From an uncultured virus (IMG/VR IMGVR_UViG_3300008108_000202) (lineage: Duplodnaviria > Heunggongvirae > Uroviricota > Caudoviricetes): DNA of 64,000 nt. The stretch lies in the IMG/VR virus record IMGVR_UViG_3300008108_000202. One strand, given 5' to 3'. The position numbers were made by a program, and so were the translations under genes. Position 1 is the stretch's first letter; the number at the start of each line of letters is the position of its first letter. The notes beneath the pieces were generated by a model that was not told the origin of the DNA, searched no databases, and saw only the letters and a program-made list of their open reading frames with translations. This document shows positions 1-45,157 of the stretch, in pieces.

Positions 1-222
1 ATCATATCCTTTATTATCTTGTAACCATTTTGCTCTTTCTTCTAAACTCAACTCTCGTTCTTGAATTTTTAGTCCCCACTTTTCAGAGAACTCAGGATCC
101 GTTTTACATTTGTTGATGAATTCTTCTTTAGTCCAAGCAGTATCTTTATACAGAATATGATTTTTTTCTCTATAACTCTCATACGCCTCATCAATAATCT
201 GATTGTATCTTTCTTTACTCAT
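1..222 (-). CDS. ESYE-family paralog (partial, runs off window)
   Basis: Hand translation MSKERYNQIIDEAYESY...KEEFINKCKTDPEFSEKWGLKIQERELS shares the family blocks. Confidence 0.85.
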   Translation of the reverse strand, partial: MSKERYNQIIDEAYESYREKNHILYKDTAWTKEEFINKCKTDPEFSEKWGLKIQERELSLEERAKWLQDNKGYD

Positions 223-403
223 AACTTTCTATTTTATATCTTATATCTGTTCTATATTCATGTCTATCATAATAAGGCCAAATCATCTGACCTTCTTCAG
301 TTTCTTTAAACATTATTTCTATTTGAAAAGAATCTAACTGATACATATCTTCAGTAAACCATTGATATCCATTGGAAAAATATCTTATTTGTTTCTTACT
401 CAT
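215..403 (-). CDS. hypothetical protein ending in the ESYE junction repeat
   Basis: 62 aa ORF with stop/start overlaps at both ends. Confidence 0.75.
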   Translation of the reverse strand: MSKKQIRYFSNGYQWFTEDMYQLDSFQIEIMFKETEEGQMIWPYYDRHEYRTDIRYKIESYE

Positions 404-809
404 AACTTTCTATTGTTTCGTTGTTATATGTTAGTGTGATTAGTTTGGTTGGTATGTTATTTCTATCCCAAGATTCAACCGTCATGGGTGATACAAACTC
501 AGAATCATACTTAGCCAATTTTCTTCTTTCTTCCAAACTCAACTCTCGTTCCTCAATCTTTAGTCCCCACTTTTCAGAGAACTCTGGATTGATTTTACAA
601 ATATTAACGAACTCTTCTTTTGACATCTTTTTACCTGTACCAGGAATACAATCTTTCTCAAAATTCTTATACACCTCATCAATGATCTGATTGTATCTTT
701 CTTTTGATGTGATGTATTTATTAACAATTCTCTCAATCCCGATTGAGGTGTACCCAAGTTTTTTGTCTTGATTAACCCAAGTCATAAAGTCCAATAATTC
801 TTTATTCAT
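396..809 (-). CDS. ESYE-family paralog
   Basis: YNQIIDE / FSEKWGLKIEERELS / PTKLITLTYNNETIESYE blocks. Confidence 0.9.
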   Translation of the reverse strand: MNKELLDFMTWVNQDKKLGYTSIGIERIVNKYITSKERYNQIIDEVYKNFEKDCIPGTGKKMSKEEFVNICKINPEFSEKWGLKIEERELSLEERRKLAKYDSEFVSPMTVESWDRNNIPTKLITLTYNNETIESYE

Positions 810-1191
810 AACTTTCCAGTGTTTCTTTGTTGTATGTTAGTACTGTTAGTTTGGTTGGGATGTTTTGTTGGTCTAACTCAAAATCTTTCCAATCAGATTT
901 CATAAAAGGGTTATTACCATTTAAATGAATTTTAAACCACTCATTTCTTTCTTGGGTACTCAACTCTCTTTCCTCAATCTTTAATCCCCACCTTTCAGAG
1001 AACTCAAAACCTGACTTACATTTGTTGATGAACTCTTCTTGTGATAATAATCTAGGGGTTGCATGGTAAATAGGTCCTTCTACAACTATAATGTCTTTAT
1101 TGATTTCTAAATTAAGATTTAATCCTTTGGTTTTATCAATAAAATTCTTATAAACCTCATCAATAATCTGGTTGTATTTTTCGTTATTCAT
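802..1191 (-). CDS. ESYE-family paralog
   Basis: Same three blocks; start moved to MNNEKYNQ at 1191. Confidence 0.88.
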   Translation of the reverse strand: MNNEKYNQIIDEVYKNFIDKTKGLNLNLEINKDIIVVEGPIYHATPRLLSQEEFINKCKSGFEFSERWGLKIEERELSTQERNEWFKIHLNGNNPFMKSDWKDFELDQQNIPTKLTVLTYNKETLESYE

Positions 1192-1192
1192 A

Positions 1193-1555
1193 TTACCATC
1201 TATTTTGTTTCCATTTATCATCACCCTGATCTTCCAACTTTCTAACGATACTTAAGGCTTCTTGTGCAGTTGGTGTTTTAACATCAAAATCATAAGCAAT
1301 TCTACCGACAGAATAAACTAAATACTTGAGGTATTTTCTTTCTAATTCAAGTGTATGTTCAGAATCATAAGGTATTTTCATTGCAGAATTGTCATCAGAA
1401 AAATATAAAGACATATAAAAAGGGTTGACAATATCTAATAATTCCGTAAACCATTCTTTTGATACCCTTTCAAATGTTTTTCTACTGGCTGATGTAATCC
1501 AGGTATTGGTACTACTCCATTCCTCTTTTGTTAATGTTATTGATATTTTATTCAT
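1193..1555 (-). CDS. hypothetical protein
   Basis: 120 aa ORF coupled to neighbours. Confidence 0.75.
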   Translation of the reverse strand: MNKISITLTKEEWSSTNTWITSASRKTFERVSKEWFTELLDIVNPFYMSLYFSDDNSAMKIPYDSEHTLELERKYLKYLVYSVGRIAYDFDVKTPTAQEALSIVRKLEDQGDDKWKQNRW

Positions 1556-1907
1556 ATGTCTCTATTGTTTCGTTGTTGTATGTTAGTGTGATTAGTTTGG
1601 TTGGACCAGGTAAGCTTTGTAATATAGTCATTAAATTAGATTCAGACAACTTATCTATATCTATTATCTTGGATTGATGTTTGGGATTGTAGTTTTGTTT
1701 TTCTAACCAATTATTATAAGCATGTGCTTGTTCCTTTAAGGATAACTCTCGTTCCTCAATTTTCAATTCCCACTTTTCAGAGAACTCAGGATCTGTTTTA
1801 CATTTGTTGATGAATTCTTCTTTAAGTAGAAAAGTAAGGTACATCACATGCTTATTTTCTTGATGGTACTTTTCATACACCTCATCAATAATCTGTTCTT
1901 TATTCAT
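1548..1907 (-). CDS. ESYE-family paralog
   Basis: Same three blocks. Confidence 0.9.
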   Translation of the reverse strand: MNKEQIIDEVYEKYHQENKHVMYLTFLLKEEFINKCKTDPEFSEKWELKIEERELSLKEQAHAYNNWLEKQNYNPKHQSKIIDIDKLSESNLMTILQSLPGPTKLITLTYNNETIETYE

Positions 1908-2197
1908 AACTTTTGTTTAATTTTTTCATATGATTTTTCTAAAGTGGAAAGTAGTTGTTCAACGGCATTTTCTCCTTCTCCAATAGCAATTTCTTCGTTA
2001 TTGTCTCCACATCCATCCACAATTTCAGAGGAAAATCCTGAACGATGTTGGTCTAAAGAAATATTAAACCAATGACAACTATGGGGGTATTTTTCGTGAT
2101 ACTCACCATCATAGTTTTTACCATAGAATACACCTAAATCTTCTAATTTAGTCATAATATCTATGAATCTTTTTCCTATCATTTCTTCTTTACTCAT
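1904..2197 (-). CDS. hypothetical protein
   Basis: 97 aa ORF with overlapping stop/start. Confidence 0.75.
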   Translation of the reverse strand: MSKEEMIGKRFIDIMTKLEDLGVFYGKNYDGEYHEKYPHSCHWFNISLDQHRSGFSSEIVDGCGDNNEEIAIGEGENAVEQLLSTLEKSYEKIKQKL

Positions 2198-2678
2198 AAC
2201 TTTCTATTGTTTCGTTGTTGTATGTTAGTGTGATCAGTTTGGTTGGGATGTTTTTTTCATTTAACCATTGGGTGGTTTTTTCATCTTCCTCCATTAATAA
2301 AGGTGCATTGGATTTTAAAGAATTAACAATGTGTTTTATTCTCTCGTTAAAACTCAACTCTCTTTCTTCAATCTTTAGTCCCCATTTTTCAGAGAACTCA
2401 GGATCTGTTTTACATTTGTTGATGAATTCTTCTTTATCCAATTCCCATTGTCTATCATCTCTCATATATTCGTAATAATTCTCATAAGCCTCATCAATAA
2501 TCTGATTGTAGATATTTACTTCATCCCATTCTTTGTGTTCGTTATCACCAACTAGTTTATAGTATTTACCTTCATATTCCCATATACAATCCCAATTTTC
2601 TTTTACTCTTGGATTATTTGGATATGCTCTACCTGATTGGTCGTAATTCAATTTTCCTTTTTTAATTTTCATAATCAC
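2190..2678 (-). CDS. ESYE-family paralog with unrelated N-terminal extension
   Basis: About 55 unique residues, then the family blocks. Confidence 0.88.
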   Translation of the reverse strand: MIMKIKKGKLNYDQSGRAYPNNPRVKENWDCIWEYEGKYYKLVGDNEHKEWDEVNIYNQIIDEAYENYYEYMRDDRQWELDKEEFINKCKTDPEFSEKWGLKIEERELSFNERIKHIVNSLKSNAPLLMEEDEKTTQWLNEKNIPTKLITLTYNNETIESYE

Positions 2679-2688
2679 TCATAACTTT

Positions 2689-2931
2689 CTATTGTTTCGT
2701 TGTATTTCCAAAGTGTGATATATCATAGGATATTTTTTCTGTTTCTTCAACAGTATTATCATCTTTTATTTTACCAATGGCTCTTGATGATACCCAAATT
2801 GTTTGATTTTGAGTAAGTAGTTCATTTACCTTTTTTGATGACTCACCATCATTAAATTGAATGGTCTTTCCTTCGTCTGTCGTGTATCCGACAATTTCAC
2901 CATTATATTTTACAGGGATATCTTTACTCAT
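2689..2931 (-). CDS. hypothetical protein ending TTKQ in the junction repeat
   Basis: 80 aa ORF; reads the junction repeat in an alternative frame. Confidence 0.75.
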   Translation of the reverse strand: MSKDIPVKYNGEIVGYTTDEGKTIQFNDGESSKKVNELLTQNQTIWVSSRAIGKIKDDNTVEETEKISYDISHFGNTTKQ

Positions 2932-3475
2932 AACTTTCTATTGTTTCGTTGTTGTATGTTACTGTGATTAGTTTGGTTGGAACCAATGTAGTACTTCCTT
3001 TTAACATTGGATTTGTTTGGTCTATTTGTTTCAATATTTCTCGTTCTTCAATCTTTAATCCCCACTTTTCAGAGAACTCAGGATCTGTTTTACATTTGTT
3101 GATGAATTCTTCTCTTAAATAAAGGTGATGTCTAGGACTACCATCAAAATAGAAATCTTCTTTCATCCACTTTGTGTCCAAACAATTTCTTAAATAATTT
3201 GTATTAGCCTCATCAATGATCTGGTTGTATGTTCTACTCACATCTTCCAAGTTTTCACCAGTAAAAGATTTGAATCTGATTTTAAGATTATCTATTGTAT
3301 CAAGTTCAATACCATAAGGTTCGTGGTCTGTGTTTAGTTGATATAGTTCTTTATCAGGTGTTATGATAATCTTAAAATTATCATTTTCTTTGTGAAAGAA
3401 CTTATGTCCGAGTTGTTCATCTTTTCCGTATTGAACAAAGTATTGTGTTATTTGGTTCAAATCTTTTATGTCCAT
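2924..3475 (-). CDS. ESYE-family paralog with unrelated N-terminal extension
   Basis: About 80 unique residues, then the family blocks. Confidence 0.88.
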   Translation of the reverse strand: MDIKDLNQITQYFVQYGKDEQLGHKFFHKENDNFKIIITPDKELYQLNTDHEPYGIELDTIDNLKIRFKSFTGENLEDVSRTYNQIIDEANTNYLRNCLDTKWMKEDFYFDGSPRHHLYLREEFINKCKTDPEFSEKWGLKIEEREILKQIDQTNPMLKGSTTLVPTKLITVTYNNETIESYE

Positions 3476-3513
3476 CTTTTTATATTTTTAGTTGATTAAA
3501 TTTTTACATACTT

Positions 3514-3563
3514 ATAACAAATGATAAACAACATTAAAACGATTGTTGATCATCGGACGTTAT
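3514..3563 (+). repeat. attC-like site A (short type)
   Basis: ataac-aa-atgataaacaa-loop-ttgttgatcat-cggac-gttat. Confidence 0.8.
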
Positions 3564-3571
3564 ATTCAATA

Positions 3572-3859
3572 TTAATTTTTTAACTTATGTTCAAAGTATA
3601 ATTCTCTGTACATCTTATGTTGTTTTCCGTAAAAATCAGCTAAGAAAAAATTCCAATTATCATCACCATTTTTACCTATTAACATAGCATGTATATTTTG
3701 TAGTTTCATATACATCATCGCAACTTTCCCATAATTGTCAGGATTATTTTTTAACTTATTAATATCATCCAATTGTTTTTCTAATTCAGTTTTAGGTATA
3801 ATCAACCTCATAAACTTTAAAAAATAATCCTTAATTTTTTCTTTTGTTTTCATAATCAT
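3572..3859 (-). CDS. cassette-borne hypothetical protein
   Basis: 95 aa ORF filling the A-B interval. Confidence 0.8.
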   Translation of the reverse strand: MIMKTKEKIKDYFLKFMRLIIPKTELEKQLDDINKLKNNPDNYGKVAMMYMKLQNIHAMLIGKNGDDNWNFFLADFYGKQHKMYRELYFEHKLKN

Positions 3860-3881
3860 AATCCAAAAATTAATACTAAAT

Positions 3882-3962
3882 ATAACAACAAATATAAGAA
3901 ATAAATCTTACTTTGTCTAATTTTTAATGAAAAGATTTACTTCTCATATTTGCAGACGTTAT
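3882..3962 (+). repeat. attC-like site B (long type)
   Basis: Stem caaatataagaaataaatctt / aagatttacttctcatatttg (19 of 21; both mismatches G-T on the minus strand) between ataac and gttat. Confidence 0.8.
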
Positions 3963-3970
3963 GTGTAATA

Positions 3971-4168
3971 TTATTTTTGTTTTGAGTTATCAGTTAAATA
4001 GTTTAATATTTTTTTGATTTTAACTATTTGTCTTCTCCAATTTAATTTTTGTTCATAACAATATATTGAACTAAAATAAATTAATATGGATAAATTTAAA
4101 TTATTATCTTCATTATTTAATTGAAACCCCATTCGTTCTTGGAACTCTTCAAAACTTTCTTTTTTCAT
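3971..4168 (-). CDS. cassette-borne hypothetical protein
   Basis: 65 aa ORF ending SKQK, filling the B-C interval. Confidence 0.75.
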   Translation of the reverse strand: MKKESFEEFQERMGFQLNNEDNNLNLSILIYFSSIYCYEQKLNWRRQIVKIKKILNYLTDNSKQK

Positions 4169-4210
4169 ATACTTAATTTTTTAATCGGTAAAACAAAAAT
4201 AATACAACTT

Positions 4211-4260
4211 ATAACAAATGATAAACAACATTAAAAAGATTGTTGATCATCGGACGTTAT
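4211..4260 (+). repeat. attC-like site C (short type)
   Basis: Near-identical to site A. Confidence 0.8.
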
Positions 4261-4330
4261 ATGTAAGTGTTCCGTTCATCGTTCTAATCAACTCGTTGAA
4301 AATTTTAAAAGAAAAATCCCACTCACTTTT

Positions 4331-4843
4331 TTAGACGACTCTTATTTCAATTTTACCTCTACCATCTATGTAGTAATCATATATATCTTCATCACTTTTA
4401 TATATATCATCCAACCATTGTGAAACATCAAGTTTTTCTCCACCATATTTAGTTATCAATTTGTCAAGAACCTTTGTAGCATATTTACTTCTTTTCTGAG
4501 ATATTTCTTTACTGAATAATTGACTAACAAAACCTTTCATACCAATATCTTTTGAAGTTTTATATAATGTTTCATATATAGAAAATCCAATTCCTTTCCC
4601 AATATAATCATTATACAATTCTATATTATCAATAACTAACCAATTTTCCTCTATATAAAATCTTAATGTTCCGATTTTTTTATTATTCATATATAAATCT
4701 AAATTATCGGAGTAAGTTTCTATAAATGATATATTTATTTTTTTGAAGTTATTTTTCAATTGTTCATTAAAACTAATGTTCTCAATATTTTCATTCAAAA
4801 ACTCTCGTATCGTGGTTTTAATAAAATTTCTCAAATCTTTCAT
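4331..4843 (-). CDS. cassette-borne GNAT-like acetyltransferase
   Basis: IDNIEL...YIGKGIGFSIY acetyl-CoA loop; phage-type N-terminus IKTTIREFLNE. Confidence 0.65.
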   Translation of the reverse strand: MKDLRNFIKTTIREFLNENIENISFNEQLKNNFKKINISFIETYSDNLDLYMNNKKIGTLRFYIEENWLVIDNIELYNDYIGKGIGFSIYETLYKTSKDIGMKGFVSQLFSKEISQKRSKYATKVLDKLITKYGGEKLDVSQWLDDIYKSDEDIYDYYIDGRGKIEIRVV

Positions 4844-4958
4844 TTGTTTTTCTTTATATATAAATATTCAGAATTAAATCTTCCACCCATCTTTTTCTTT
4901 TAAAATTTTTGTTCAGTTCTCCGATTAAACATTCTACCTTAATTAACCACACCTACAC

Positions 4959-5050
4959 ATAACAAGGTGTATAAGAAAGTTTGCCATAAAGTTTAAGTGG
5001 TAATTTTGAAAGTTCATCTAAGCAAACCTTCTCATACACCCAACCGTTAT
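4959..5050 (+). repeat. attC-like site D (long type)
   Basis: Stem ggtgtataagaaagtttgc / gcaaaccttctcatacacc between ataac and caacc-gttat. Confidence 0.8.
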
Positions 5051-5058
5051 ATGAAATG

Positions 5059-5214
5059 TTATTTTTGTTTTGAGTATATTTCACTTGTTTTATTCACAGC
5101 ATCTTGCACACTCTCCATCCAAGTTTTAAGTATTGGTCTAAAATTGAAAATAGACATTTCAGCATCCCAAATAACTTTTGGTATTTCAATTTTAATGATC
5201 TTTCGGTCTTTCAT
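5059..5214 (-). CDS. cassette-borne small protein (51 aa, not in ORF track)
   Basis: Hand translation MKDRKIIKIEIPKVIWDAEM...EIYSKQK fills the D-E interval. Confidence 0.7.
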   Translation of the reverse strand: MKDRKIIKIEIPKVIWDAEMSIFNFRPILKTWMESVQDAVNKTSEIYSKQK

Positions 5215-5258
5215 AATTTATATTTTTTTAATAGGTAAAACAAAAACAACACATTCAT

Positions 5259-5308
5259 ATAACAAATGATAAACAACATTAAAACGATTGTTGATCATCG
5301 GACGTTAT
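5259..5308 (+). repeat. attC-like site E (short type)
   Basis: Identical core to site A, including downstream gttatattcaat. Confidence 0.8.
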
Positions 5309-5314
5309 ATTCAA

Positions 5315-5557
5315 TTAAACAGTCTTACCCATTTTATTTCGTTCATACCATACCCACAGACTATCTCTCCAAGGTGTGTCATTCATACCCCATTTTTGAG
5401 CATCAATTCTCATATCTTCTGGTAATTCCCAAAATAATTGTTCCATTTCTTCTTGGTTTAGATTTACTTTACCATTATCCCAAGTTACATCCAATATAAC
5501 ATCGTGGAAATGCGCCCAATCATTTTTGTCAAAGTTGTAATCTTCTATTTTATTCAT
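5315..5557 (-). CDS. hypothetical protein
   Basis: 80 aa ORF starting in a junction repeat. Confidence 0.75.
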   Translation of the reverse strand: MNKIEDYNFDKNDWAHFHDVILDVTWDNGKVNLNQEEMEQLFWELPEDMRIDAQKWGMNDTPWRDSLWVWYERNKMGKTV

Positions 5558-5563
5558 AACTTT

Positions 5564-5683
5564 CTATTGTTTCGTTGTTTTTAATAATTTAATTAACTTC
5601 TCATATTCATCAGGTGATTCTTTTTTTATTACCTCTAATTGATATGCGAGTGGTGTTAAATATTTTTCCTTTTTCTTACTCAT
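5564..5683 (-). CDS. 39 aa ORF between two junction repeats
   Basis: Hand translation MSKKKEKYLTPLAYQLEVIKKESPDEYEKLIKLLKTTKQ. Confidence 0.65.
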   Translation of the reverse strand: MSKKKEKYLTPLAYQLEVIKKESPDEYEKLIKLLKTTKQ

Positions 5684-5689
5684 AACTTT

Positions 5690-6076
5690 CTATTGTTTTG
5701 GTTTAACAGACCAACTCCAAAGTTTTATCCAATCTGGGTTTCCATTAATGATTGCCCGGTGTTGCCACTTAACCTCTCTCAAAGTTTGGTATGGTTTACC
5801 ATTATCATCACCATTGAATATTAATTTATCTCCTTCCCACACAGGTTTACCTTCAACATACATAACAGGATAAGGGTTTTCACTAACATCATTGTCGTTC
5901 ATATTGGGGTTTTCCATCCATTTCCGGAAATCCCACACCTTATTGTCAGGTGCAATTATATTATAATCTTCTTTATTCATATCTTCTTTCAATAGTTTTG
6001 ATGCTTTACCCTCCATCATTTCGGCAATATTTATTTTTGTTGTTGACGTATCATTTAAACCCATTTTGTCTAACAA
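5690..6076 (-). CDS. hypothetical protein
   Basis: 128 aa ORF ending PKQ in the junction repeat. Confidence 0.7.
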   Translation of the reverse strand: MLDKMGLNDTSTTKINIAEMMEGKASKLLKEDMNKEDYNIIAPDNKVWDFRKWMENPNMNDNDVSENPYPVMYVEGKPVWEGDKLIFNGDDNGKPYQTLREVKWQHRAIINGNPDWIKLWSWSVKPKQ

Positions 6077-7481: not shown

Positions 7482-7751
7482 CTTCTTCTTGTTCTTTTTC
7501 CATATTAATATTATACGCAATAGTTTAATATTTGTTACTTAATGAGTTAAGAATTTTTCTTTTAAGCCACAATCGTATTGTTTTTGAGCGGATGTTAGAT
7601 GTTGTGGGATGATGTTTTCCCAATCAATGTATAAATGAATAAATCTACCTAACCTCAAACGATCTTCTCCAACTTGAGGAATATACCACGTTTCCCCATT
7701 ATTTTTTTCTTCTATTTTAATTCTGTAGTGACTCATTTTTATTATAAATGT

Positions 7752-8087
7752 TTATTGATAAAATATAATAACTTCGTCTTTATAAATCAATTTGATTAGT
7801 TTGGTTGGTGTTGTTGGTTTGAAAGCTTCTTCTGTAATGTAAAGATTTTCCAATTCAACGTCAGTATACTTCATAACCCATTGGATCTTTTCTTCAAAGG
7901 TAATCTCCCGTTTATTAAGTCGGATTCCAAATAAAAACCCGAAACCATAGTTATTGGTTATTTCATTAACAAATTCTTCCTTTGTAAGATCCATTTCTTC
8001 CTCCAAGATAAATGGTTCATAATGATGAGTTTCATGATAATAATCATAGACCTCATCAATTATCTGATCGTATCTTTCTTTATTCAT
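7752..8087 (-). CDS. diverged ESYE-family paralog
   Basis: RYDQIIDEVY, KEEFVN and PTKLIKLIY blocks. Confidence 0.8.
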   Translation of the reverse strand: MNKERYDQIIDEVYDYYHETHHYEPFILEEEMDLTKEEFVNEITNNYGFGFLFGIRLNKREITFEEKIQWVMKYTDVELENLYITEEAFKPTTPTKLIKLIYKDEVIIFYQ

Positions 8088-8886
8088 CGTCTCTCAAATC
8101 AATCGTAATATACTCAGGGAAAAGTTGATCCATCCCCACACCCAAACAAACTTTAAATAATTGCGTGTCATCCGATTCCTCACTTATATAAGGTAAGTCT
8201 TCATCAGGTAATGTATTAGAAACCCCCTCAAGGGCCTTATCTAATTTAGCGTTTTCTTGAGCGGCTTTCATAATTTTATCCGTTCCTTCTTTAATAGCCG
8301 CTTCTGCTCTATCATTTTTCCAATCTTCACTCATATTTATCTTTGTTTTGAAGTTCTTTCAATTCCTTTTTATACTCGTCTATCAACCTACCATTTTTCA
8401 CAATCGTTTCTGTAAATAATCTTGAATCTTTTTGTGACGCCTCGATAACATCATTCTTTAGATGCCGTATGATAATTTTAATTTCATCTACTCTATCCAT
8501 ATTTTTCAGTGTTTTTTCTTTATTCATTTTTATCTTTGTTTTCAAATTTTAGTATCATTAACATTAGACAAGATCCAACACCTTCAGCCGCCTTCCAATC
8601 AAACCCTTCGCTTTCAGGAGTCCAATTTTTATATTCCCACCAAAGTTCAAAAGTTTCTATGGCTAACTCTTTAATTTTATCAGGCAGATTCATATTTTGA
8701 ATTTTTAATCTACCGTCTTTATAGTTTAACCCATCAAATCTCTTCTTTGCCAATTCTTTAAGTTCTTTTTTATTCATCTGTTCCTAAGTTTTTTAATCCT
8801 TCAATAACTTCCTTATTATCATCTGTCTTCTCACTCCAAAACATCATATGTTTGAGTAAGTCATTTCCATCAATTTTAATATTCAT
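8080..8886 (-). other. run of small coupled hypothetical ORFs (8080-8334, 8327-8545, 8520-8777, 8770-8886)
   Basis: Overlapping stop/start junctions; two end in NKDKxE. Confidence 0.7.
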
Positions 8887-8892
8887 AACTTT

Positions 8893-9141
8893 CTATTTTT
8901 CGTTGTTGAATGTTGGACCACTGAATCCAGGAATATACATAATTCGCATAGCTGTGGTTTCTGCTTGTTCTTGGCTATATCCTTTATCTAGGTACTTTTG
9001 AATCAAGTCGTTCTTTATTTTAATTTCTTCATCAATACTAACTTTAAATTCTTCTACTGACATCCCTCTGGATTTAGCTATACCTTCAATTGAATATCGT
9101 TCTGCTAAACTTCTTCTTGGTGAAAATTCTTCTTTATTCAT
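8893..9141 (-). CDS. hypothetical protein
   Basis: 82 aa ORF between two junction repeats. Confidence 0.75.
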   Translation of the reverse strand: MNKEEFSPRRSLAERYSIEGIAKSRGMSVEEFKVSIDEEIKIKNDLIQKYLDKGYSQEQAETTAMRIMYIPGFSGPTFNNEK

Positions 9142-9526
9142 AACTTTCTATTGTTTCGTTGTTGTATGTTAGTGTGATCAGTTTTCTGGGTATGGAATTG
9201 TCCATATCAACTGTTTCTCTAATCATATTCCATCCAATTCCACCTCCATTTTCGTAATCATATCCAGCAAAAATTATTCGTTCTTTTTCACTCAATTCTC
9301 TTTCTTCAATCTTTAATCCCCACTTTTCAGAGAACTCAGAATCGGTTTTACATTTGTTGATGAATTCTTCTTTTGATAATAATTCAATAAGAATAACTCT
9401 TACTCGTTTCCCTTGACTCCTTAATCTATTAACTTCTTCTTTCTGTATTTCCCTTTGACGAATAATTTCTTTCTTGTAATTCTCATACGCCTCATCAATA
9501 ATCTGGTTGTATATTTCTTTATTCAT
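9134..9526 (-). CDS. ESYE-family paralog
   Basis: Same three blocks. Confidence 0.9.
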   Translation of the reverse strand: MNKEIYNQIIDEAYENYKKEIIRQREIQKEEVNRLRSQGKRVRVILIELLSKEEFINKCKTDSEFSEKWGLKIEERELSEKERIIFAGYDYENGGGIGWNMIRETVDMDNSIPRKLITLTYNNETIESYE

Positions 9527-9580
9527 TTATTGTTTGGTTTATTTTATCTACTTTTTCTTTCAATTGTTCTTTATGCATTT

Positions 9581-10588
9581 TTATCCATTATAATATTCAG
9601 ACTGTAAAATACCCCCATTTCTTGACACCACATACCCATAGAAATTTTCATCATCTTCCACATCAAAATAACCTTTAGGTGAACGATAGAAAAATACTTT
9701 TTCAGCATTCGGTATATGTTTTTTAACATCATATACTGAGAATGGGTATGAAACGGATGTAACTACTCTCCATTTGGTGTCCCAGTATTTATTGGGGTCT
9801 AATGGTTTTATTTGTCCTGTATAATAATTAAACATATACGTGTGTGGTGTGAGAGTGTAATGCTTACTCATCTTTATCTTTGTTTAAAAATTCTTCTTCT
9901 GTTAATAACTCTCTTCTTTCTATTAAATTCCCCACACTACCATAATATATGTCTATTGTATTTCCTTTTTTAAACCTTTTTAGTAAGTTATCTTCCATAA
10001 ACTCAAACACATCTTCAAGGGTACTTAAATCAGATCTGTATTTAAGTTTAATCCACTCACCGTCATTGTCTTTATAATACCATATATTATTCATCTTTGT
10101 TTTGGTTTTCTGTTATTACAACATTTATTAAATCGCCAGGCGAATAATCATCACAATCATAAAACGTTGTGTGTTTTTCTTTTAAGCAACGTTCACATAT
10201 TTCATATAATTCAATACTCCCATCACATTCTTTTGAATAGTGTGCGTCCGTGAATTTATGTCCAACAATTTTACACCATAAATAACAAAACAACATTGAC
10301 CCACCAAACCAAATAAGACCCAAAATAATAAAAGGAATCTCAAGTATAATTCTTAGTACTTCTTTTTTACTCATCTTTATCTTTGTTTTGGTTTAAGATA
10401 CCTAACTGTTTTAATAGGGTTGGTAATTCATTTATATTTTTGACGTGACCCTTAAATATTTGCATATTTCCTGATTTGATTCGTATATAATGATCATCAA
10501 ACTCTTTAAAATAAATGGTATAACTATCTTTTTTACATGGACCACCTAAAAATCTAAACCCTAAGCTCTCAAAATATTCTTTATACAT
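9581..10588 (-). other. four small coupled hypothetical ORFs (9581-9871, 9864-10094, 10087-10374, 10367-10588)
   Basis: Coupled through NKD(KD)E-stop/ATG junction repeats. Confidence 0.75.
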
Positions 10589-10592
10589 AACT

Positions 10593-10835
10593 TTACATTC
10601 TTACAAATCTATAAATTGCTATCTTGATGGATGGATGAGATTGTGTTTGTTCCTCTCTAACTTTTTCATGCCACTCACTATACGGACGAGCGTGAAATCC
10701 TCCAAACGAAAGTGATTTATATATTACAAGTATTTCATTTGTTTCTGTATGGTTACACATACAAACAATTTCGTATTGGCCACCTTTATAATGTTGCCAT
10801 TTTTCTCCTGGTTGTGGGTAATGTCTATTTTCCAT
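10593..10835 (-). CDS. DUF1653 family protein
   Basis: WQHYKGGQY...HTETNE.LVIYKSL...ARP motif. Confidence 0.85.
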   Translation of the reverse strand: MENRHYPQPGEKWQHYKGGQYEIVCMCNHTETNEILVIYKSLSFGGFHARPYSEWHEKVREEQTQSHPSIKIAIYRFVRM

Positions 10836-10919
10836 ATTTTTTTCTTAAGTATGCTGCGTATCTATTTCTTTTACGTAGGGGAATAAATAAGATCCCCCAA
10901 TTTAATTCAAACCATTTTA

Positions 10920-12940
10920 TCATTTTATAACTCGTTTTTCTAGTAAATTAATCAATGATTGGACTTCTTCAAATTTATGGAAACGGATGATCGGATCTGA
11001 TTCAAAGAAATCCACATACCATCCTTCATCTTCTTTTAATTCATCATTTGCGTTTGAGATGAGTTCAAATCCATCCACCACTTTATATGAGTAATAATAG
11101 AATGGGAATTGAGGATCATCCTCAACTTGTTTTTCAAAACCCAATAATTGTACTTCTTTTTCTGTCATGTGTTTTCGTTTACTTGTTTTGATTTATCATC
11201 TTCCTTCGCCTTGATCTTATCGTGTTTCATTTTGAATTCATATAAAATTCTTATGAACTCTTCAATTGTGTCAAATGACCATCTCTCCGTTTCAATAACA
11301 AAGAAATCTCCTCCACCACCATTATCCGTTTTAATGGTTAAATATTGTTCATTAGATGTTGTACAATCGGAATCTTGAGTAAATGTGATTTTAAGTTCTT
11401 GACTTAATAACCAAGGTTTTTTATTTTCCATAATTTATTTTTTTACAAAGATAATAAAAAAATTAATACTCAAACATATCATAACACCAAATTGGTGTTT
11501 TTTCTCCAACATAGGATCCTGAAACATTGTAATAGAAGTGTTCAAGAGCACTCTCAATTGTTTCGCCTTCTGAAACCAATATTTCAATACATTTTTTAAC
11601 GGAATATACTACTCTCAAAGAGTACTCATCAATCCCAATGATCGCATCGTCAAAACCTGTTGCTAACAAAATTTCTTCATCTGGGAATCTTTCATTTATT
11701 TCTTCTACCATAACTTTTTTTTAAAAGATAAAACAATTGAAATTATAAATCAATTTATCAATTTATTTTATCCAAAATTATTTGTATTGCAATAACGATT
11801 ACCGTAAAAGATACGGCAAATAAATGTAAAAGTTGTTCAAATAGTATCATATCCATAGTTTTTAATTTTTCTTTTCATAGACTTCAGTCCAATTATAATT
11901 CCCACATTGATTACAAGAATCACCATCATCAGATCTTTCGGTATTGTATTCATATTCACCTGAAAGTTGGACAACCCATTTAGCAATTTCAGCCCAGTCA
12001 TTCATACCTAACCCTTGTTTTAGTTCGGTTAGTTTATTCAGCAACTTATCTTGAAGATCTTCAATCATTTTTGGATCTCTATTATCATATTCATGCATGA
12101 ATAATGATTCACCATCAATTGTTACGTCTTGACCAAAACAACCTTCACTTATTATAATTTCATTCATAACCCTAAATTACTTGTTCTATTCATATCCAAA
12201 ATATATTTCTTTAGATTCTTAACCATTTCTTCGGCATCCATCTTTTTATAAAGTTCAGGATATCTTTCAGATAATAGTTTGGATTCCTCAAGTTCATCAC
12301 AACTTACCAAAATATCCTGTAACATTGATTTATAAATATGTTCCTTATCTTCCTTGAGATCTCTTTCAAATTTTTCACCTTCAAGTTCTCGGCAATAATC
12401 AATAAGCATCTCAACAGGATGTAAGTCCATTAAATGTTCGTTCCCTTCAAATATCTGATGTATGCTGGTCATATTATTCTTTATTTGATTCAATCATTAT
12501 TTAATAATTTATCAAGTTCTTTACCGTACTCTTTAAGCAATCTCTCTCGCTCTTGTGATTGACGGATCTTTTCATTTATTAATTCTTTTCTTTCTTTAGG
12601 TCTAACATAAAAGACCATTGTTATAATATATCCAATGATCATACAAAAAGCCCCCACACACATTAATCCAATTATATTCATATTATTTTTTTTAAAATAT
12701 ACCAAGTTCTAATTCTTTCAACTTATACTCACAAATAAGACAGGTTAGGATCGTATCAAATTTTGCCAATTTTTCAACTTTCTTCCAAGATGTTTTTGAT
12801 AGACCGTGCCCGTATCTACCAAGAATATTATTAGGATTACCATAATAGTTATTAGGATATTTTTCCTTGATGTGTCCAATAACTTTATCCTCTATTTTAG
12901 CCAAGGACATAACTTGACCGTATGTGAGATTGTCTTTCAT
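10920..12940 (-). other. cluster of small hypothetical ORFs (10920-11168, 11165-11431, 11463-11711, 11862-12167, 12164-12493, 12490-12705, 12692-12940)
   Basis: Co-directional, tightly packed ORFs with phage-like composition. Confidence 0.7.
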
Positions 12941-12941
12941 A

Positions 12942-13259
12942 TTAAAATTGTTTTAGTTTGTTAAGTGCTTTTTCGTGCCGATCATACTTCTGATTAGCAT
13001 GATACACTTGAAGGTGGGAAAACTCATCGTAGTTATCTGTAACACAATAATCGTGCGAGGACAAATATCCCCCAAGCAAAATTTTACACTCTTCTTTGGT
13101 ATATTTCTGAGTTCTCCTATCCAACAATTCTTTTAGTTTGTCAAACCCTCTTTCGGTATGTTCATTTTCTGGAAGGTGAGATCCGTCCTCCTCGTAGGAT
13201 TTCCAAATAGCCGACTTGTTGATCCCCAAATCGTTTTTAAGATGAATTAGTTTTTCCAT
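12942..13259 (-). CDS. hypothetical protein
   Basis: Starts just downstream of a TAnnTTTG box (13264-13271). Confidence 0.7.
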   Translation of the reverse strand: MEKLIHLKNDLGINKSAIWKSYEEDGSHLPENEHTERGFDKLKELLDRRTQKYTKEECKILLGGYLSSHDYCVTDNYDEFSHLQVYHANQKYDRHEKALNKLKQF

Positions 13260-13277
13260 ATCACAAATATACAAAAA

Positions 13278-13688
13278 TTATTTTAATTCATTCAAAATTT
13301 CCAAACAATTTTCTTTCCAATCAGGATGATCAACATTTAATGGTTTACAAGTATCTTTACTTTCCATTATAAGAATTAATTCGTGTAAGTCATCATCTAG
13401 GTGAAAAACAAAACCTTTATCTTTTAAATAGACAATTTTATCTTCACCATTAGTAAAATGAATATGTTCTTTTTTTATATTACATTTTTCAGAAACATTA
13501 TATAAGTTTTTGTTTTGTTCAATAATCCACCACCAAGCTTTTGACTTTGCGCTTTGGTTAGAATGTCTTGAAGTAACAATCCAAACCTCATGTCCTTGTT
13601 CAACCAATTCTTTAGCGAACTTCTGAACATCAGGTCTAGATAAAGTTCCGTCAAAGTCAAATGATACTTTTTTTAATTTATTACTCAT
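13278..13688 (-). CDS. HAD-superfamily phosphatase-like protein
   Basis: SFDFDGTL, VTSR, K and HLDDD motifs. Confidence 0.8.
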   Translation of the reverse strand: MSNKLKKVSFDFDGTLSRPDVQKFAKELVEQGHEVWIVTSRHSNQSAKSKAWWWIIEQNKNLYNVSEKCNIKKEHIHFTNGEDKIVYLKDKGFVFHLDDDLHELILIMESKDTCKPLNVDHPDWKENCLEILNELK

Positions 13689-20040: not shown

Positions 20041-20488
20041 GATTTAATTACTTGGTCTCTAAAATAAACATCACTAATTACCATTCCGTCAATATTCTTA
20101 CCATTGCCAAGATGAATATAATTACCTTCAATTTTGGTAATCATACCATAATCTTCCACCAATCCTGTAATCCTATTAACCACCTTAACATAGTCACCTA
20201 CTTTGATGTCCCTTCCGTTTTCTGAGGTTTAATATTACTTCAAATTTTGATTACAAATTTCGTAATAATTCGTCTTTTTCATCTTTAAATCCTTGTTTTA
20301 TAAGGGTTTTTGAATAGGTGTTGATATATTATAGTTAGGTTCAATCATTAATTTGTTTTGAGTTTATTTCTTTTTTCATATTATACATTGCAAAACCACA
20401 CCAAATTAATTGTAGTGTTAAATAAATAATTATTCCTGTTTTCATATTCTTATTTTTTACAAAGGTAAAACAAATTAATGACAAAACC

Positions 20489-20537
20489 TAACAAATGATA
20501 AACAACATTAAAACGATTGTTTATCATCGGACGTTAT
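20489..20537 (+). repeat. attC-like site F (short type)
   Basis: Perfect 11-bp stem atgataaacaa / ttgtttatcat. Confidence 0.8.
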
Positions 20538-20740
20538 CGGCAATTCCTTTGTCGTTCCAATAGCCATTGTACTCCTTCTTCAAACCCATTTGCGTAATCA
20601 TCCATCCTTTGAACTGGTTCATCTCTGAATTTGTATGAAGCGTCAAATGATGCCTGTTCAATTTCCTTTTGCGATGGAACTGCCGATAACACCGTATTTG
20701 TGCTATTGGCGGTTTCGTTTTTCAAATTATCTTTTTCCAT
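20534..20740 (-). CDS. cassette protein starting inside the loop of site G
   Basis: 68 aa; stop TAA is formed by the GTTA core of site F. Confidence 0.75.
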   Translation of the reverse strand: MEKDNLKNETANSTNTVLSAVPSQKEIEQASFDASYKFRDEPVQRMDDYANGFEEGVQWLLERQRNCR

Positions 20741-20811
20741 ATTTTCAAGTTTGGTTTTTCAAATTAAGTTCTGTGGTTAAATCGCCAACAGACACAAATA
20801 CTTTTTCGTTA
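20686..20811 (+). repeat. attC-like site G (long type)
   Basis: gtatttgtg-ctattggcggttt / aaatcgccaacagacacaaatac with one extrahelical base. Confidence 0.8.
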
Positions 20812-21114
20812 GCAGAAATGTTTCTCCCCACAATTGTTACAGTACAGATACCTTACCGTTATTAGGTTATTTGAGGTATTTGGCTCGTCCGAACCATCAT
20901 CGTATTCTAATTCACTTACTATTTCTGTATCTGTACTTTCACAATCCTTACAAACACATCTGCTAACATCATGTATAAGCAATTCATTATCGCTTAAATC
21001 AATCTTGTAATTTTTCAAGTAAACGTCAACAACTCCTGTTGCATTTGCTTCATTTTCAAGCGACATCCAATTATTCACTCGAAGAAATTCTATTAGTTCC
21101 GTTCTTAAATCCAT
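20809..21114 (-). CDS. cassette protein starting inside the loop of site H; zinc-finger C-terminus
   Basis: 101 aa, CKDC...CNNC; stop lies in the GTTA core of site G. Confidence 0.75.
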   Translation of the reverse strand: MDLRTELIEFLRVNNWMSLENEANATGVVDVYLKNYKIDLSDNELLIHDVSRCVCKDCESTDTEIVSELEYDDGSDEPNTSNNLITVRYLYCNNCGEKHFC

Positions 21115-21155
21115 TGTAAAATAATATTAAACTGCTTATACATGAGTAACGTTAT
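20964..21155 (+). repeat. attC-like site H (coding loop of about 145 nt)
   Basis: Perfect 13-bp stem tcatgtataagca / tgcttatacatga. Confidence 0.75.
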
Positions 21156-21264
21156 AAACAATAAATTAAAATTTGTTCCACCCTAATCTTTCAACCCAAT
21201 CAGAAAAAGATTTTTCTTTCCCCTTATCAATAGGTTTATCTTCTCTCAAATGTTTTGGTATGTT

Positions 21265-21352
21265 ATAACAAGGTATATGTGAAATACCTCATAAAGTTTC
21301 TACTAAATTTAAATTTCTGTGGTAAGGTACTTCACATATACCCAACCGTTAT
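21265..21352 (+). repeat. attC-like site I (long type, related to D)
   Basis: ggtatatgtgaaatacct / aggtacttcacatatacc; caacc-gttat end as in D. Confidence 0.8.
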
Positions 21353-21359
21353 ACACAAT

Positions 21360-21617
21360 TTAATCTACAACGTGAATTTTCTCCTCAATTTTAACTATAC
21401 TTCTTTTATCGTGTTTTATGATTTCCATAGCATCATTATAACCATCATTAGGTAATCCACCTTTATTTAGCGTTATCCACCCATCAACTTCATCAAACAC
21501 TACCTGTTTTTTATCTAAAACACTTCTACGTTGTTCCAACACTCTACCTAAAAATTGAGGATAAAATTCACTCCTACCATCTTCAAACTTTTCTTCTTTA
21601 ATTCTATATTTTTTCAT
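21360..21617 (-). CDS. cassette-borne hypothetical protein
   Basis: 85 aa ORF filling the I-J interval. Confidence 0.8.
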   Translation of the reverse strand: MKKYRIKEEKFEDGRSEFYPQFLGRVLEQRRSVLDKKQVVFDEVDGWITLNKGGLPNDGYNDAMEIIKHDKRSIVKIEEKIHVVD

Positions 21618-21656
21618 TTTATTAAATTTTAGTTGTTAATTCCGATTAAACTGTGT

Positions 21657-21704
21657 ATAACAAATGATAAACAACATTAAAACGATTGTTTATCATAGGA
21701 CGTT
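21657..21704 (+). repeat. attC-like site J (short type)
   Basis: Near-identical to F; ends gacgtt. Confidence 0.75.
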
Positions 21705-21871
21705 TTACTTCCATAACATTCAAGTTTCTTATCCGTTACATTCCACAAATCTTTTTTTCCTTCCGTCATATGACAATTGTGTTTCTTTCCGGTTCTTTTT
21801 CCGAACTCCACAATCATATCATTATGACGATTACGGATGAGGTGAGGGCACTCTTTACAGGGTTTTTTCAT
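21677..21871 (-). CDS. small Cys-rich protein whose 3' end runs into site J
   Basis: MKKPCKECPH...HNCHM...C. Confidence 0.7.
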   Translation of the reverse strand: MKKPCKECPHLIRNRHNDMIVEFGKRTGKKHNCHMTEGKKDLWNVTDKKLECYGSKTSYDKQSF

Positions 21872-22088
21872 TTTCGTACTTTTTGGAAATTTCATCAACT
21901 CTTTTGATAATTGATGTTTTGGATCTATAATCCTGACAGAATATAGTTTTACCATCAAAGGTAATGGTCATAAAGACATTAAATCTGTCTTGACTTACAT
22001 TACGTAGTTTGATTGATAAATTACCATAGGTGAAGTACATAGTCCCTTCACTTTTAAGTTGTTTGTAATTAAAGTTGAACTTTTCCAT
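21855..22088 (-). CDS. hypothetical protein
   Basis: MEKFNF start just downstream of a TATCTTTG box (22093-22100). Confidence 0.7.
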   Translation of the reverse strand: MEKFNFNYKQLKSEGTMYFTYGNLSIKLRNVSQDRFNVFMTITFDGKTIFCQDYRSKTSIIKRVDEISKKYENEKTL

Positions 22089-22123
22089 ATCACAAAGATA
22101 TGAAAATATTTTTAACTCACAAA

Positions 22124-25384: not shown

Positions 25385-25789
25385 TCATAATTTTATACTA
25401 AATCTATTTTTCATTTGTTCTATCTTATCTTCAGGTACATTATGATCATTTTTATTATCATGCCTTTTTTCCACAACAACACAAAATACCATATAACCAA
25501 ATTCTTTTGCCATATCAAAATATGGTTTCATTTCCCACTCTTGGGTGAATGTATTTGATACCGCAATTTTTGAGATAGATGACATCATTGCTGATCTGAC
25601 ATTATCTTGACATTCAGCATGAGCTTCTTTTATTTTGGATGGATCAAACTTATATACACCCTCACCATATGGATCATCATATACCATAAAGTATTGATCA
25701 GCCTCAAAGACGTTTGAGGTTAATTGTTTTGCGAAAGTTGATTTTCCTGAACCAGGTATTCCTCTTACTATATATAAAACTTTTTCCAT
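25385..25789 (-). CDS. AAA_33 / polynucleotide-kinase-like P-loop protein
   Basis: RGIPGSGKST, EADQYF, VSNTF and HNVP motifs. Confidence 0.85.
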   Translation of the reverse strand: MEKVLYIVRGIPGSGKSTFAKQLTSNVFEADQYFMVYDDPYGEGVYKFDPSKIKEAHAECQDNVRSAMMSSISKIAVSNTFTQEWEMKPYFDMAKEFGYMVFCVVVEKRHDNKNDHNVPEDKIEQMKNRFSIKL

Positions 25790-25793
25790 ACCA

Positions 25794-25801
25794 CAAAGAT
25801 A
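25794..25801 (-). promoter_or_regulatory. Bacteroidota-type -7 promoter box TAnnTTTG (representative copy)
   Basis: TATCTTTG just upstream of starts; also at 11446, 22093, 27483, 28958, 45066, 58360, 58795 and 60203. Confidence 0.7.
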
Positions 25802-25822
25802 GTAAAAAAAATGTAATAAACA

Positions 25823-25846
25823 AAAAAAGGAACCTAAGTTCCTTTT
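25823..25846 (-). terminator. intrinsic terminator
   Basis: aaggaac-ctaa-gttcctt with A/T tails. Confidence 0.7.
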
Positions 25847-27503: not shown

Positions 27504-27770
27504 TTATTTCAAAACAATTTCACCTTCAATAATACCAAAAGAACTATGTTCTCTGAAATGACATTCACCAGTAGTGGTGTCCTTTGTTAGAACCCACATA
27601 TCATCACCTTTCCAAGTGATATTCATTAGAACCTCATTTTTTTTAAGACTAACTTCTTCAGTACCACCCCAACTTCTTGCTCTTTGGTTATCAGTACAAG
27701 ATGTGATCATAATCACACCCAAAACAACATACAAAACTTTTTTCATACAATTATTATTTATTTTCAACAA
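27504..27770 (-). CDS. putative lipoprotein
   Basis: MKKVLYVVLGVIMITSCTDNQRARSWGG. Confidence 0.75.
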   Translation of the reverse strand: MLKINNNCMKKVLYVVLGVIMITSCTDNQRARSWGGTEEVSLKKNEVLMNITWKGDDMWVLTKDTTTGECHFREHSSFGIIEGEIVLK

Positions 27771-28134
27771 TTTCTAATAACTTATCAAGACAAGCAAGTT
27801 CTGCTTTTTCGTAGGTTTTATAAGCTGATAAGTCATTGAATTGTTTATCTATGAAATTAGGGTTTGTTGTGGCAATTACATATTCAAACTTTGCAACACC
27901 ATAATTAGATTCAATCCAAATTCTCAAATCATACTTCTCTCTAAACCATCTAAATGCTTGTGAGAATGTTGGAGCTAATACTCTATCTTCAATATTATTT
28001 AAAAATGAAATTGAATATATTGAGCGGATTTCATGAAATGTAGAATCGGGGTCATAAACACCAAAACAAGGCTCATCAAATCCAAGTGCTTTCATTCTTA
28101 AAGCCAACTCATAAGGTACAAATTCTTTTTCCAT
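27754..28134 (-). CDS. MEKEFVPY-family paralog 3
   Basis: LGFDEPCFG / APTFSQAFRWFREK / AELACL blocks. Confidence 0.88.
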   Translation of the reverse strand: MEKEFVPYELALRMKALGFDEPCFGVYDPDSTFHEIRSIYSISFLNNIEDRVLAPTFSQAFRWFREKYDLRIWIESNYGVAKFEYVIATTNPNFIDKQFNDLSAYKTYEKAELACLDKLLEIVENK

Positions 28135-28135
28135 A

Positions 28136-28555: not shown

Positions 28556-28556
28556 A

Positions 28557-45039: not shown

Positions 45040-45157
45040 AATATTTTGTTTTTTTAAGTATAAAACAAAGATAGTAAATAATTTATAATAACCAACTAAC
45101 ATCAAAAAAAATTTTAAAATTATGGGGTGTTTATACCAAACCCATATATTTATATAT

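Follow-up and report, generated by a model that had tools for sequence, protein, structure and literature searches.

Arrays of attC-like hairpins in an uncultured phage: a probable integron-like cassette system with a Xer-like recombinase

Introduction

Integrons are regarded as bacterial, and recently also archaeal, devices that are defined by one specialised integrase. The DNA analysed here is a stretch of 64,000 nt from an uncultured virus, a giant lake-water phage of the class Caudoviricetes (IMG/VR record IMGVR_UViG_3300008108_000202); the whole stretch is called the window, and all coordinates and strand names refer to its plus strand. It contains two rows of attC-like hairpins separated by small genes (arrays 1 and 2), both of which are probably cassette arrays of a phage-borne, integron-like site-specific recombination system. 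A preliminary description of the window had already proposed an integron-like reading of array 1. The comparison with related phages presented below largely supports this proposal, with corrections: the predicted enzyme resembles Xer and has no IntI-type insert, some of the exchange takes place at the foot TAACAA, and many hairpin loops include the promoter and start codon of the gene.

The closest described systems are integrons (IntI, attI, attC), especially the sedentary chromosomal ones, whose attC sites are homogeneous, as in the Vibrio repeats. They share with the phage arrays imperfect AAC...GTT hairpins folded on one strand, an apparent G/TTA crossover, by which the start of a unit can pair with the distal foot of that unit's site, and a recombinase gene that flanks the array and adjoins a junction without a hairpin. 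In both, a cassette has a single small gene, and nearly identical sites are numerous. The phage feet TAACAA...CGTTA also appear to resemble the ends of the Vibrio repeats. However, the phage recombinase is a Xer-like protein of 266 aa, approx. 48 residues shorter than IntI4 at the position of the insert; the phage genes are antisense and are preceded by their site, which often includes promoter and start codon; the paired unit ends comprise 12-26 nt (7 in integrons); the sites carry a one-sided 3-nt bulge, apparently in place of the extrahelical bases that are described, along with an unpaired central spacer, for attC; a minority of exchanges occurs at the second foot, TAACAA; and the system is encoded by lytic-type giant phages. 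Integrons are not known for exchange at the second foot.

Clusters of attC sites lacking integron integrases (CALINs) have been found in phages. A survey of 10,705 phage genomes with IntegronFinder and HattCI (Qi et al. 2023; PMC9892861) yielded 17 CALINs and three complete integrons. In that survey, all of the integrases are canonical IntI proteins of temperate phages, virulent phages (including a Polaribacter phage, i.e. one of Bacteroidota) carry attC clusters without an integrase, and some of the phage sites were recombined by IntI1 in an assay. The integrase-less clusters of virulent phages are common to that survey and to the present case, while a Xer-like recombinase of the phage's own, an attI-like junction or a family of giant phages is not reported in the sections of the paper that were consulted.

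The nearest phage precedent is the homology-driven shuffling of PeSLs (early promoter stem-loops) in T4-type phages (PMC2839356, PMC4122927). Both cases involve conserved modules of a stem-loop and a promoter, placed between small accessory genes in plastic regions, with modular shuffling and proposed mini-circles. PeSLs are described there as being exchanged by homology, whereas the breakpoints found here lie exactly at the 4-6-nt feet of unrelated hairpins, unit ends covary, and a recombinase gene with a junction site is placed beside the array.

Xer recombinases (XerA and XerC/D, with their dif-type double-stranded sites) provide the best sequence matches of the phage enzyme, with which they share all catalytic motifs. 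The phage protein differs from them in scoring below the family cut-offs, and its gene resides in a phage, next to hairpin arrays and not to a dif site. Our literature search retrieved no description of a cassette system based on a phage's own Xer-like enzyme, only CALINs of the IntegronFinder type in phages.

Results and discussion

Hairpin sites and the folded strand

Array 1 (3515-5307) is composed of five foot-closed hairpins (TAAC-A...C-GTTA) that set apart four small minus-strand genes, in agreement with the five AAC...GTT hairpins and four single-gene units of the preliminary description. Sites A, C and E have an identical sequence of 48 nt (type A); a 35-nt pattern taken from it has five matches in the window, two of them in array 2, and none in 100 shuffled versions. 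The type A site alone folds weakly (z-score -1.7), whereas the minus strand of sites B and D gives -30.3 and -42.9 kcal/mol, compared with -18.2 and -21.4 kcal/mol for the plus strand (z-scores -7.3 and -6.6, respectively). With F, X1, X2, G and H of array 2 (20334-21705) the number of sites is ten, as previously counted; six further matches to the pattern (at 16303, 19569, 22571, 27454, 40485 and 63320) fail to fold as foot-closed hairpins. Array 1 has five sites, recognised by pattern and folding, within 1.8 kb (a CALIN being at least two attC sites in a few kb), and no integrase gene nearby: searching the 116 open reading frames (ORFs) of the window for PF00589 gave zero matches, and tblastn with the recombinase described below likewise found none in the 64 kb. 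Array 1 is therefore a CALIN-like outlier, a detached cluster 15 kb from array 2.

The exact 35-mer of type A occurs in 112 IMG/VR stretches, of which 111 loci were read, and the set of relatives used throughout this work consists of 113 oriented sources (809,025 bases). These contain 406 foot-closed TAAC...GTTA hairpins, compared with 42 in the reversed sequence, and site lengths range from 48 to about 190 nt. The closest of the records compared (G001, a 33-kb fragment) has no type A site. The minus strand is the more stable one in 177 of 187 unique sites other than type A, and the anchored arms of these sites have 444 positions with A.C on the plus strand (G.T on the minus strand) versus 22 with G.T on the plus strand. 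One arm has a net excess of 3 nt in 158 of the 187 sites, mostly AAC, AAA or AAT on the plus strand; TAAC is followed by A in 173, and GTTA preceded by C in 165, of 185 unique sites. The sites are thus, as attC sites are, imperfect inverted repeats with AAC and GTT cores that fold on one strand. The mismatch bias, the arm excess and the difference in stability together indicate selection for folding of the minus strand, into a hairpin that has a short foot with a bulge on one side and an extended stem, closed by a loop of between 10 and ca. 150 nt. A folded minus strand was to be expected from the integron-like reading of array 1. The statement in the preliminary description that most stem mismatches are A-C on the plus strand is valid for mismatches of the transition type in sites A-E (14 A.C versus 1 G.T), but not for all unpaired positions, since 15 others are found at bulges or loop edges.

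In the short sites (e.g. the 48-nt variants) the stems differ and compensate, while the loop is constant (CATTAAAACGAT on the plus strand), and the type A loop seems, from this comparison, to be conserved independently of the stem. Within type A, matches to a sigma-70-like promoter (TATCAT and a -35 of the TCACA type) do not exceed chance level (12 found, 18 expected).

The sites are interlocked with the genes. On the coding (minus) strand, a cassette consists of a hairpin (with a promoter and start codon in it or following it), the gene, and TAA, this stop codon of the gene being the complement of the GTTA at the left end of the unit. Many hairpin loops contain the promoter and start codon of the gene, and 47 of 184 unique hairpins contain an ATG that opens a reading frame running through the foot and at least 150 nt into the unit. 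The genes are inverted relative to canonical cassettes, as had been noted for array 1: instead of a promoterless ORF followed by its own attC and served by a common promoter, the genes are on the opposite strand.

This arrangement has a consequence for the interpretation of the fold, because with the genes on the folded strand its bias cannot distinguish DNA from RNA. The sites could be elements acting in RNA only, i.e. terminators, processing sites or stabilisers of the minus-strand transcript, whose unit ends pair as processing stalks, with phage mosaicism being an unrelated matter. Read-through RNA would include every site, the wobble pairs would be G.U pairs, and both the stop codon within the foot and the start codons within the loops fit this explanation. 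We nevertheless consider it quite unlikely, as it accounts neither for DNA breakpoints at the feet and the preference for the GTTA foot, nor for the adjacent recombinase and junction described below. Moreover, no Rfam family was matched (in a scan of 3000-6000 nothing came close to the threshold), and no site gave a terminator-like match in a scan confined to loops of 3-8 nt. An additional RNA-level role may accompany recombination.

Complementary ends of the cassettes

The preliminary description stated that the sequence following each GTT is complementary to that preceding the next AAC, rather than its own. In the window, this was examined by aligning the 16 nt that follow the GTTA of a site with the reverse-complemented 16 nt that precede the TAAC of its right-hand neighbour. 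In array 1, the numbers of matches are 14 for A to B (7 for A's own flanks), 12 for B to C (a tie, B's own flanks also giving 12), 9 for C to D (6 for C's own flanks and 11 for C with E) and 10, ungapped, for D to E (7 for D's own flanks). No partner matching the end at site E was found to the right of it. In array 2, F to X1 gives 12, X1 to X2 11, X2 to G 7 and G to H 13, and own-site and off-diagonal matches in the window are mostly 3-8. Because all flanks carry a common consensus, array 1 by itself shows the "next, not own" rule clearly only for the pair A/B.

It is the related phages that make the claim decisive. Among 90 unique consecutive site pairs 40 match in at least 8 of 12 positions, compared with approx. 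6% of shuffled partners and 9 of 176 own-site flanks. Units with matched ends (GTTA-N9 ... N9'-TAAC) number 282, versus 57 in the reversed control. The five bases adjoining the feet vary between units and agree inside one unit. The ends of each unit are thus complementary to each other and not to the flanks of the hairpin itself. The ends of the cassette 3 unit are seen again in two relatives (L056 and L024), where they are flanked by other hairpin types, and those of the cassette a unit recur in several loci.

Breakpoints between related genomes

The proposal that the cassettes are mobile agrees with the comparison of related genomes, in which gene order is not constant and identity starts and stops exactly at CGTTA. 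Between L059 and L073 the sequences are unrelated up to CGTTA, 97.6% identical over one unit and its right-hand hairpin, and again unrelated beyond GTTA; L039 and L040 behave in the same way, with 87% identity. The same base-by-base switch at CGTTA is visible in L024/L080 and L004/L021, and such switches also occur between hairpins that have no other sequence in common.

For a systematic comparison of the oriented loci, blocks of at least 85% identity were used and a block end was assigned to a foot when within 15 nt of it (31-nt windows, about 1.6% of the sequence). Unique right block ends (76) were located at GTTA in both loci in 31 cases, at TAAC in both in 8, at a mixture of the two in 4 and elsewhere in 33; of 78 left block ends, 20 coincided with a GTTA end in at least one locus, about 5 with a TAAC start, and 53 were elsewhere. 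The 31 right and 20 left ends at the GTTA foot, the CGTTA switches and the covariation of unit ends all agree with the G^TT crossover that had been suggested by analogy with integrons. When only the left flank is common to two sites, the hairpin is the same in 24 of 36 pairs, versus 4 of 17 pairs with only the right flank in common. Consequently, the hairpin mostly moves with its left-hand unit (in plus coordinates), which is also what a G^TT crossover predicts. A unit-based linkage test yielded just 8 homologous unit pairs, too few to be informative, and the flank-based tests were used in its place; a megablast-level search for near-identical contigs differing by whole cassettes gave one uninformative case only.

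Other pairs of sequences switch at the opposite foot. L001/L081, L037/L041 and L030/L070 are identical through TAACAA and different after it, and the same is true of cassette 1 of the window compared with the L039 copy. We must therefore allow for another exchange point, used less often, at this foot, and the hairpin is not always tied to one cassette. Exchange at TAACAA is what use of the plus-strand hairpin would be expected to produce.

Could such mosaics arise without a dedicated recombinase? The units might be regulatory cassettes of the PeSL kind, i.e. terminator-plus-promoter modules between accessory genes, shuffled by general homologous recombination as in T4-type phages. The near-identical 48-nt type A site in 112 stretches is consistent with this, as is the conservation, among otherwise unrelated units, of approx. 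100 nt that include the region upstream of the gene, a length sufficient for homologous recombination of phages. The units are small genes without a family, some breakpoints lie inside units and not at a foot (e.g. L014/L056), and shuffling and mini-circles are described for PeSLs (PMC2839356, PMC4122927). However, the switches at CGTTA, and likewise those at TAACAA, occur between hairpins that have only these 5-6 bases in common. Exchange by homology also leaves the unit-specific complementary ends unexplained, and equally the joining of units at a hairpin-less junction next to a recombinase gene of fixed side and strand (see below). We therefore regard this explanation as unlikely and favour site-specific recombination.

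The Xer-like recombinase and its junction

A search of five large related records with PF00589 revealed a tyrosine recombinase in two, in each case adjoining an array. The intact protein, encoded for example at L112:1189-1986, has 266 aa, and its sequence shows the motifs R, K, HxxR, H and Y. Its best NCBIfam match is NF040815 (XerA/integron integrase; 195 bits, cut-off 220), while TIGR02249 (integron integrase) gives 161 bits against a cut-off of 265, in two stretches. The best PDB matches are XerA (4A8E, 131 bits) and then IntI4 (2A3V). In the alignment with IntI4, residues 174-209 of the query stand opposite 177-260 of the chain, the phage protein being about 48 residues short between two aligned blocks. 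The insert specific to IntI is absent from the enzyme, which is Xer-like. More than 120 close clusters of such proteins are present in public data, annotated as XerD or integrase, on contigs of up to 566 kb.

The gene was found by tblastn, whole or as a fragment, in 23 of 80 loci taken with 5-kb flanks. All 13 distinct full-length copies are minus-strand genes that have the array to their right and no sites to their left; in 12 of them, the region ahead of the start codon contains an ATA..TA-GTTA junction, to which a unit end is directly joined. In sequence and position this junction is comparable to attI, the non-hairpin primary site beside an integrase gene at which cassettes are joined. The tyrosine recombinase to be expected from the integron-like reading of the window has therefore been found beside the arrays of relatives, with a constant side, strand and attI-like junction; the window itself retains no more than a remnant.

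The constancy of this arrangement also bears on the possibility that the hairpins are moved by an enzyme of another class (REP/RAYT-like, or an HUH enzyme of the IS200/IS605 type) or by a host enzyme, with the Xer-like gene as a passenger. Strand-specific imperfect hairpins with fixed 4-nt feet would suit such enzymes, and several complete relatives have arrays without an intact tyrosine recombinase. We judge this very unlikely indeed. None of the five related records, three of which are at least 98% complete, encodes a Y1 HUH transposase (PF01797), and the recombinase gene is constant in its side (13/13), strand (13/13) and junction (12/13). Furthermore, AAC/GTT feet and matched unit ends are the signature of integrons, and are not known as that of IS200/IS605 elements.

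Homologues of the recombinase with 30-55% identity are common in Bacteroidota genomes. At 80 bacterial homologue loci no general association with hairpins was apparent (40 relaxed AAC...GTT hairpins versus 38 in the reversed control), and convincing arrays with matched unit ends are present at just two of them, on a contig of a metagenome-assembled genome (L128) and on a Maribacter chromosome (L167). The latter, a complete chromosome, has four ACAAC...GTTGT hairpins with matched unit ends (oriented positions 7616-11207) next to a recombinase of 37% identity, which shows that this design is not confined to phages, although the foot is a different one. Homologues with 35-41% identity are encoded by Cellulophaga phage Ingeline and Polaribacter phages Freya and Leef. 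In Freya_10 (L119), approx. 4.08 kb at the start of the integrase gene is unmatched in the examined stretches of Freya_1 (L120/L121). This difference of about 4 kb consists of small same-strand genes directly upstream of the start of a 36%-identical integrase; the hairpin finder detected no TAAC...GTTA hairpins in the region, and a repeat scan gave few candidates.

Array 2 of the window

The segment 20200-20345 of the window aligns with a relative carrying the intact gene (L021) through the junction, the 5' untranslated region, the start codon and about 16 codons, followed by a stop codon and divergence. In an alignment of seven junction sequences, including 20306-20337 of the window, the columns are invariant through TAGTTA. 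Since the alignment with L021 breaks off after about 16 codons, array 2 is best read as a platform minus its recombinase, i.e. as a decayed platform from which the gene was probably deleted; the phage appears to have lost its recombinase at this place.

Contigs from public runs (at least 90% likeness) diverge from it exactly at 20808, in the GTTA of X1, in one case, and just after 21154, the GTTA of X2, in two runs of different studies, although these are short assembled metagenome pieces, from samples that also contain relatives, which limits them to the role of supporting evidence. In one further contig (run X13), position 20221 is connected to 21706 through 16 other letters, and the remnant, the junction and all of array 2 are missing; the whole platform, 20221-21706, behaves as a single insertion or deletion. 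The public runs (lake water and others) consist of contigs, and most of the joints listed, with sides of 20-31 nt that possibly represent repeats or relatives, were not used as evidence.

Proposed mechanism and its standing

In the favoured explanation, each hairpin would be an attC-like site whose minus strand forms a 5-bp foot (TAACG/TGTTA) and, above it, a long stem that ends in a variable loop, the 5' arm having about 3 extra bases. A cassette, read on the coding strand, would open with the hairpin, often with its own promoter and start codon in or just past the loop, and close at the TAA stop codon that is part of the next foot. Cleavage of the minus-strand hairpin by the 266-aa Xer-like recombinase would take place at AA^C (G^TTA on the plus strand), and the partner in the exchange would be a second hairpin or the attI-like junction, which has no hairpin and adjoins the recombinase gene. 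An excised unit would be circular; its two ends would pair and lengthen the foot, and in this way would stay complementary. The rarer exchange at the TAACAA foot would swap the hairpin module itself. In the window the system would be orphaned, and present mobility would need a recombinase supplied from elsewhere in the genome or by a co-infecting relative.

The anatomy of the sites, the strand bias, the end covariation, the exact breakpoints, the adjacency of the recombinase, the attI-like junction and the remnant were observed directly; cutting by the Xer-like enzyme, the single-stranded substrate and the circular intermediate we infer from them. Several results weigh against this explanation. 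Approximately half of the neighbouring site pairs have no matched ends, in part due to missed sites, and the excess of G.T pairs is equally compatible with folding as RNA and as DNA. Many block ends are off the feet (33 of 76 right and 53 of 78 left ends), these and the linkage counts being made on pairs that are not phylogenetically independent. The hairpin differs in 12 of the 36 pairs with only the left flank in common, and 8 right ends lie at TAAC in both loci, which one fixed crossover point does not explain. The enzyme has no IntI insert, a segment that is linked to hairpin recombination in the literature (PMC4792948). An intact recombinase is absent from the 64-kb window, the complete records G003 and G004 keep arrays together with only fragments of the gene, and the copy in G002 is split by a GIY-YIG gene. 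Because of these fragments and the split gene, many of the arrays may be fossils.

As regards the interruption in G002, a 465-kb relative, the gene (L113:1162-2588) is broken off at residue 174, where an oppositely oriented GIY-YIG gene of 261 aa follows, and the last 32 residues are encoded downstream. This may represent a homing insertion or an intron.

We conclude that the phage system works like an integron but is not a member of that group in the strict sense, since the IntI insert is absent and the polarity of the cassettes is reversed. A more far-reaching proposal can be made tentatively, as one that may well turn out to be wrong: that an insert-less recombinase of the Xer type performs integron-style recombination of folded single strands in giant Bacteroidota phages, that it acts at both feet for want of the insert responsible for strand choice, and that it shuffles genes, and promoter/leader modules against protein bodies, from a cassette pool extending across many phage lineages and some Flavobacteriaceae chromosomes. 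If this were true, the integron mechanism would be independent of the IntI-specific domain and would have arisen, or persisted, outside bacteria. The same cassette logic is met here in giant lytic-type phages with a plain Xer-like enzyme. If active, the system would explain the turnover of many small orphan genes in such phages and would make it possible to test, in a natural setting, if hairpins can be recombined without the IntI insert. It is compact, comprising a 266-aa enzyme and a 48-nt site, and the window would show its end state, in which the arrays outlive the recombinase.

Cassette contents and neighbouring genes

The features of both arrays are listed in Table 1. None of the eight cassette ORFs was assigned to a family by comparison with Pfam and PHROGs.

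Table 1. Sites, cassette units and associated features of the two arrays in the window
Feature	Position	Strand	Description
Site A	3515..3562	-	48-nt type A attC-like hairpin; plus strand TAACAA...CGTTA; minus strand folds
Cassette 1 unit (GTTA...TAAC)	3559..3886	-	ORF 3572..3859, 95 aa, without family; ends match 14/16
Site B	3883..3961	-	79-nt hairpin
Cassette 2 unit	3958..4215	-	ORF 3971..4168, 65 aa; ends match 12/16
Site C	4212..4259	-	type A hairpin
Cassette 3 unit	4256..4963	-	ORF 4331..4843, 170 aa
Site D	4960..5049	-	90-nt hairpin
Cassette 4 unit	5046..5263	-	ORF 5059..5214, 51 aa
Site E	5260..5307	-	type A hairpin; right edge of array 1
Recombinase gene remnant (Xer-like)	20235..20282	-	start codon (20282) and about 16 codons, then stop; aligns to 5' end of intact L021 gene
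attI-like hairpin-less junction (...GATATATTATA-GTTA)	20306..20337	.	point where first cassette is joined
Cassette a unit	20334..20492	-	small membrane-like ORF 20341..20484; ends match 13/16 (attI-like junction to F, counted from the flank strings)
Site F	20489..20536	-	type A hairpin
Cassette b unit	20533..20690	-	body of ORF 20534..20740; its TAA stop is the complement of GTTA
Site X1	20687..20811	-	125-nt hairpin; loop contains start codon and leader of ORF 20534..20740
Cassette c unit	20808..20967	-	C-terminal part of ORF 20809..21114
Site X2	20964..21154	-	191-nt hairpin; loop contains N-terminal half of ORF 20809..21114
Unit d	21151..21269	-	short, without convincing ORF; ends poorly matched, 7/16
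Site G	21266..21351	-	86-nt hairpin, D type
Cassette e unit	21348..21661	-	ORF 21360..21617, 85 aa; ends match 13/16
Site H	21658..21705	-	degenerate type A hairpin (GTTT end, foot not closing); right edge of array 2

To the left of array 1 (1-3475), and again at 9134-9526, the window carries eight or nine tandem paralogous minus-strand genes, in which the gene junction (TTACTCATAACTTTCTATTGTTTCGTTG...) is conserved and internal blocks, assigned to repeat families D1-D10, are held in common. The final paralogue (2924..3475) closes in a right end of the cassette type ahead of site A, and the 5' part of this gene, together with site A, is found again inside the array of a relative (L003). Three further tandem paralogous genes, of about 130 aa, are located at 27737-29014 (repeat families D6, D11 and D12). 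A free-standing GIY-YIG endonuclease gene (42962-43627; Pfam 2.1e-06) lies beside thioredoxin and glutaredoxin genes.

A recurrent motif, ACAAAGATA (TATCTTTGT on the coding strand), is present just ahead of minus-strand start codons, e.g. at 13252-13290, 22081-22122, 25782-25823 and 45060-45095, and at other positions. The -7 promoter consensus of Bacteroidota is TAnnTTTG. The motif fits this consensus, and presumably points to a host from the Bacteroidota.

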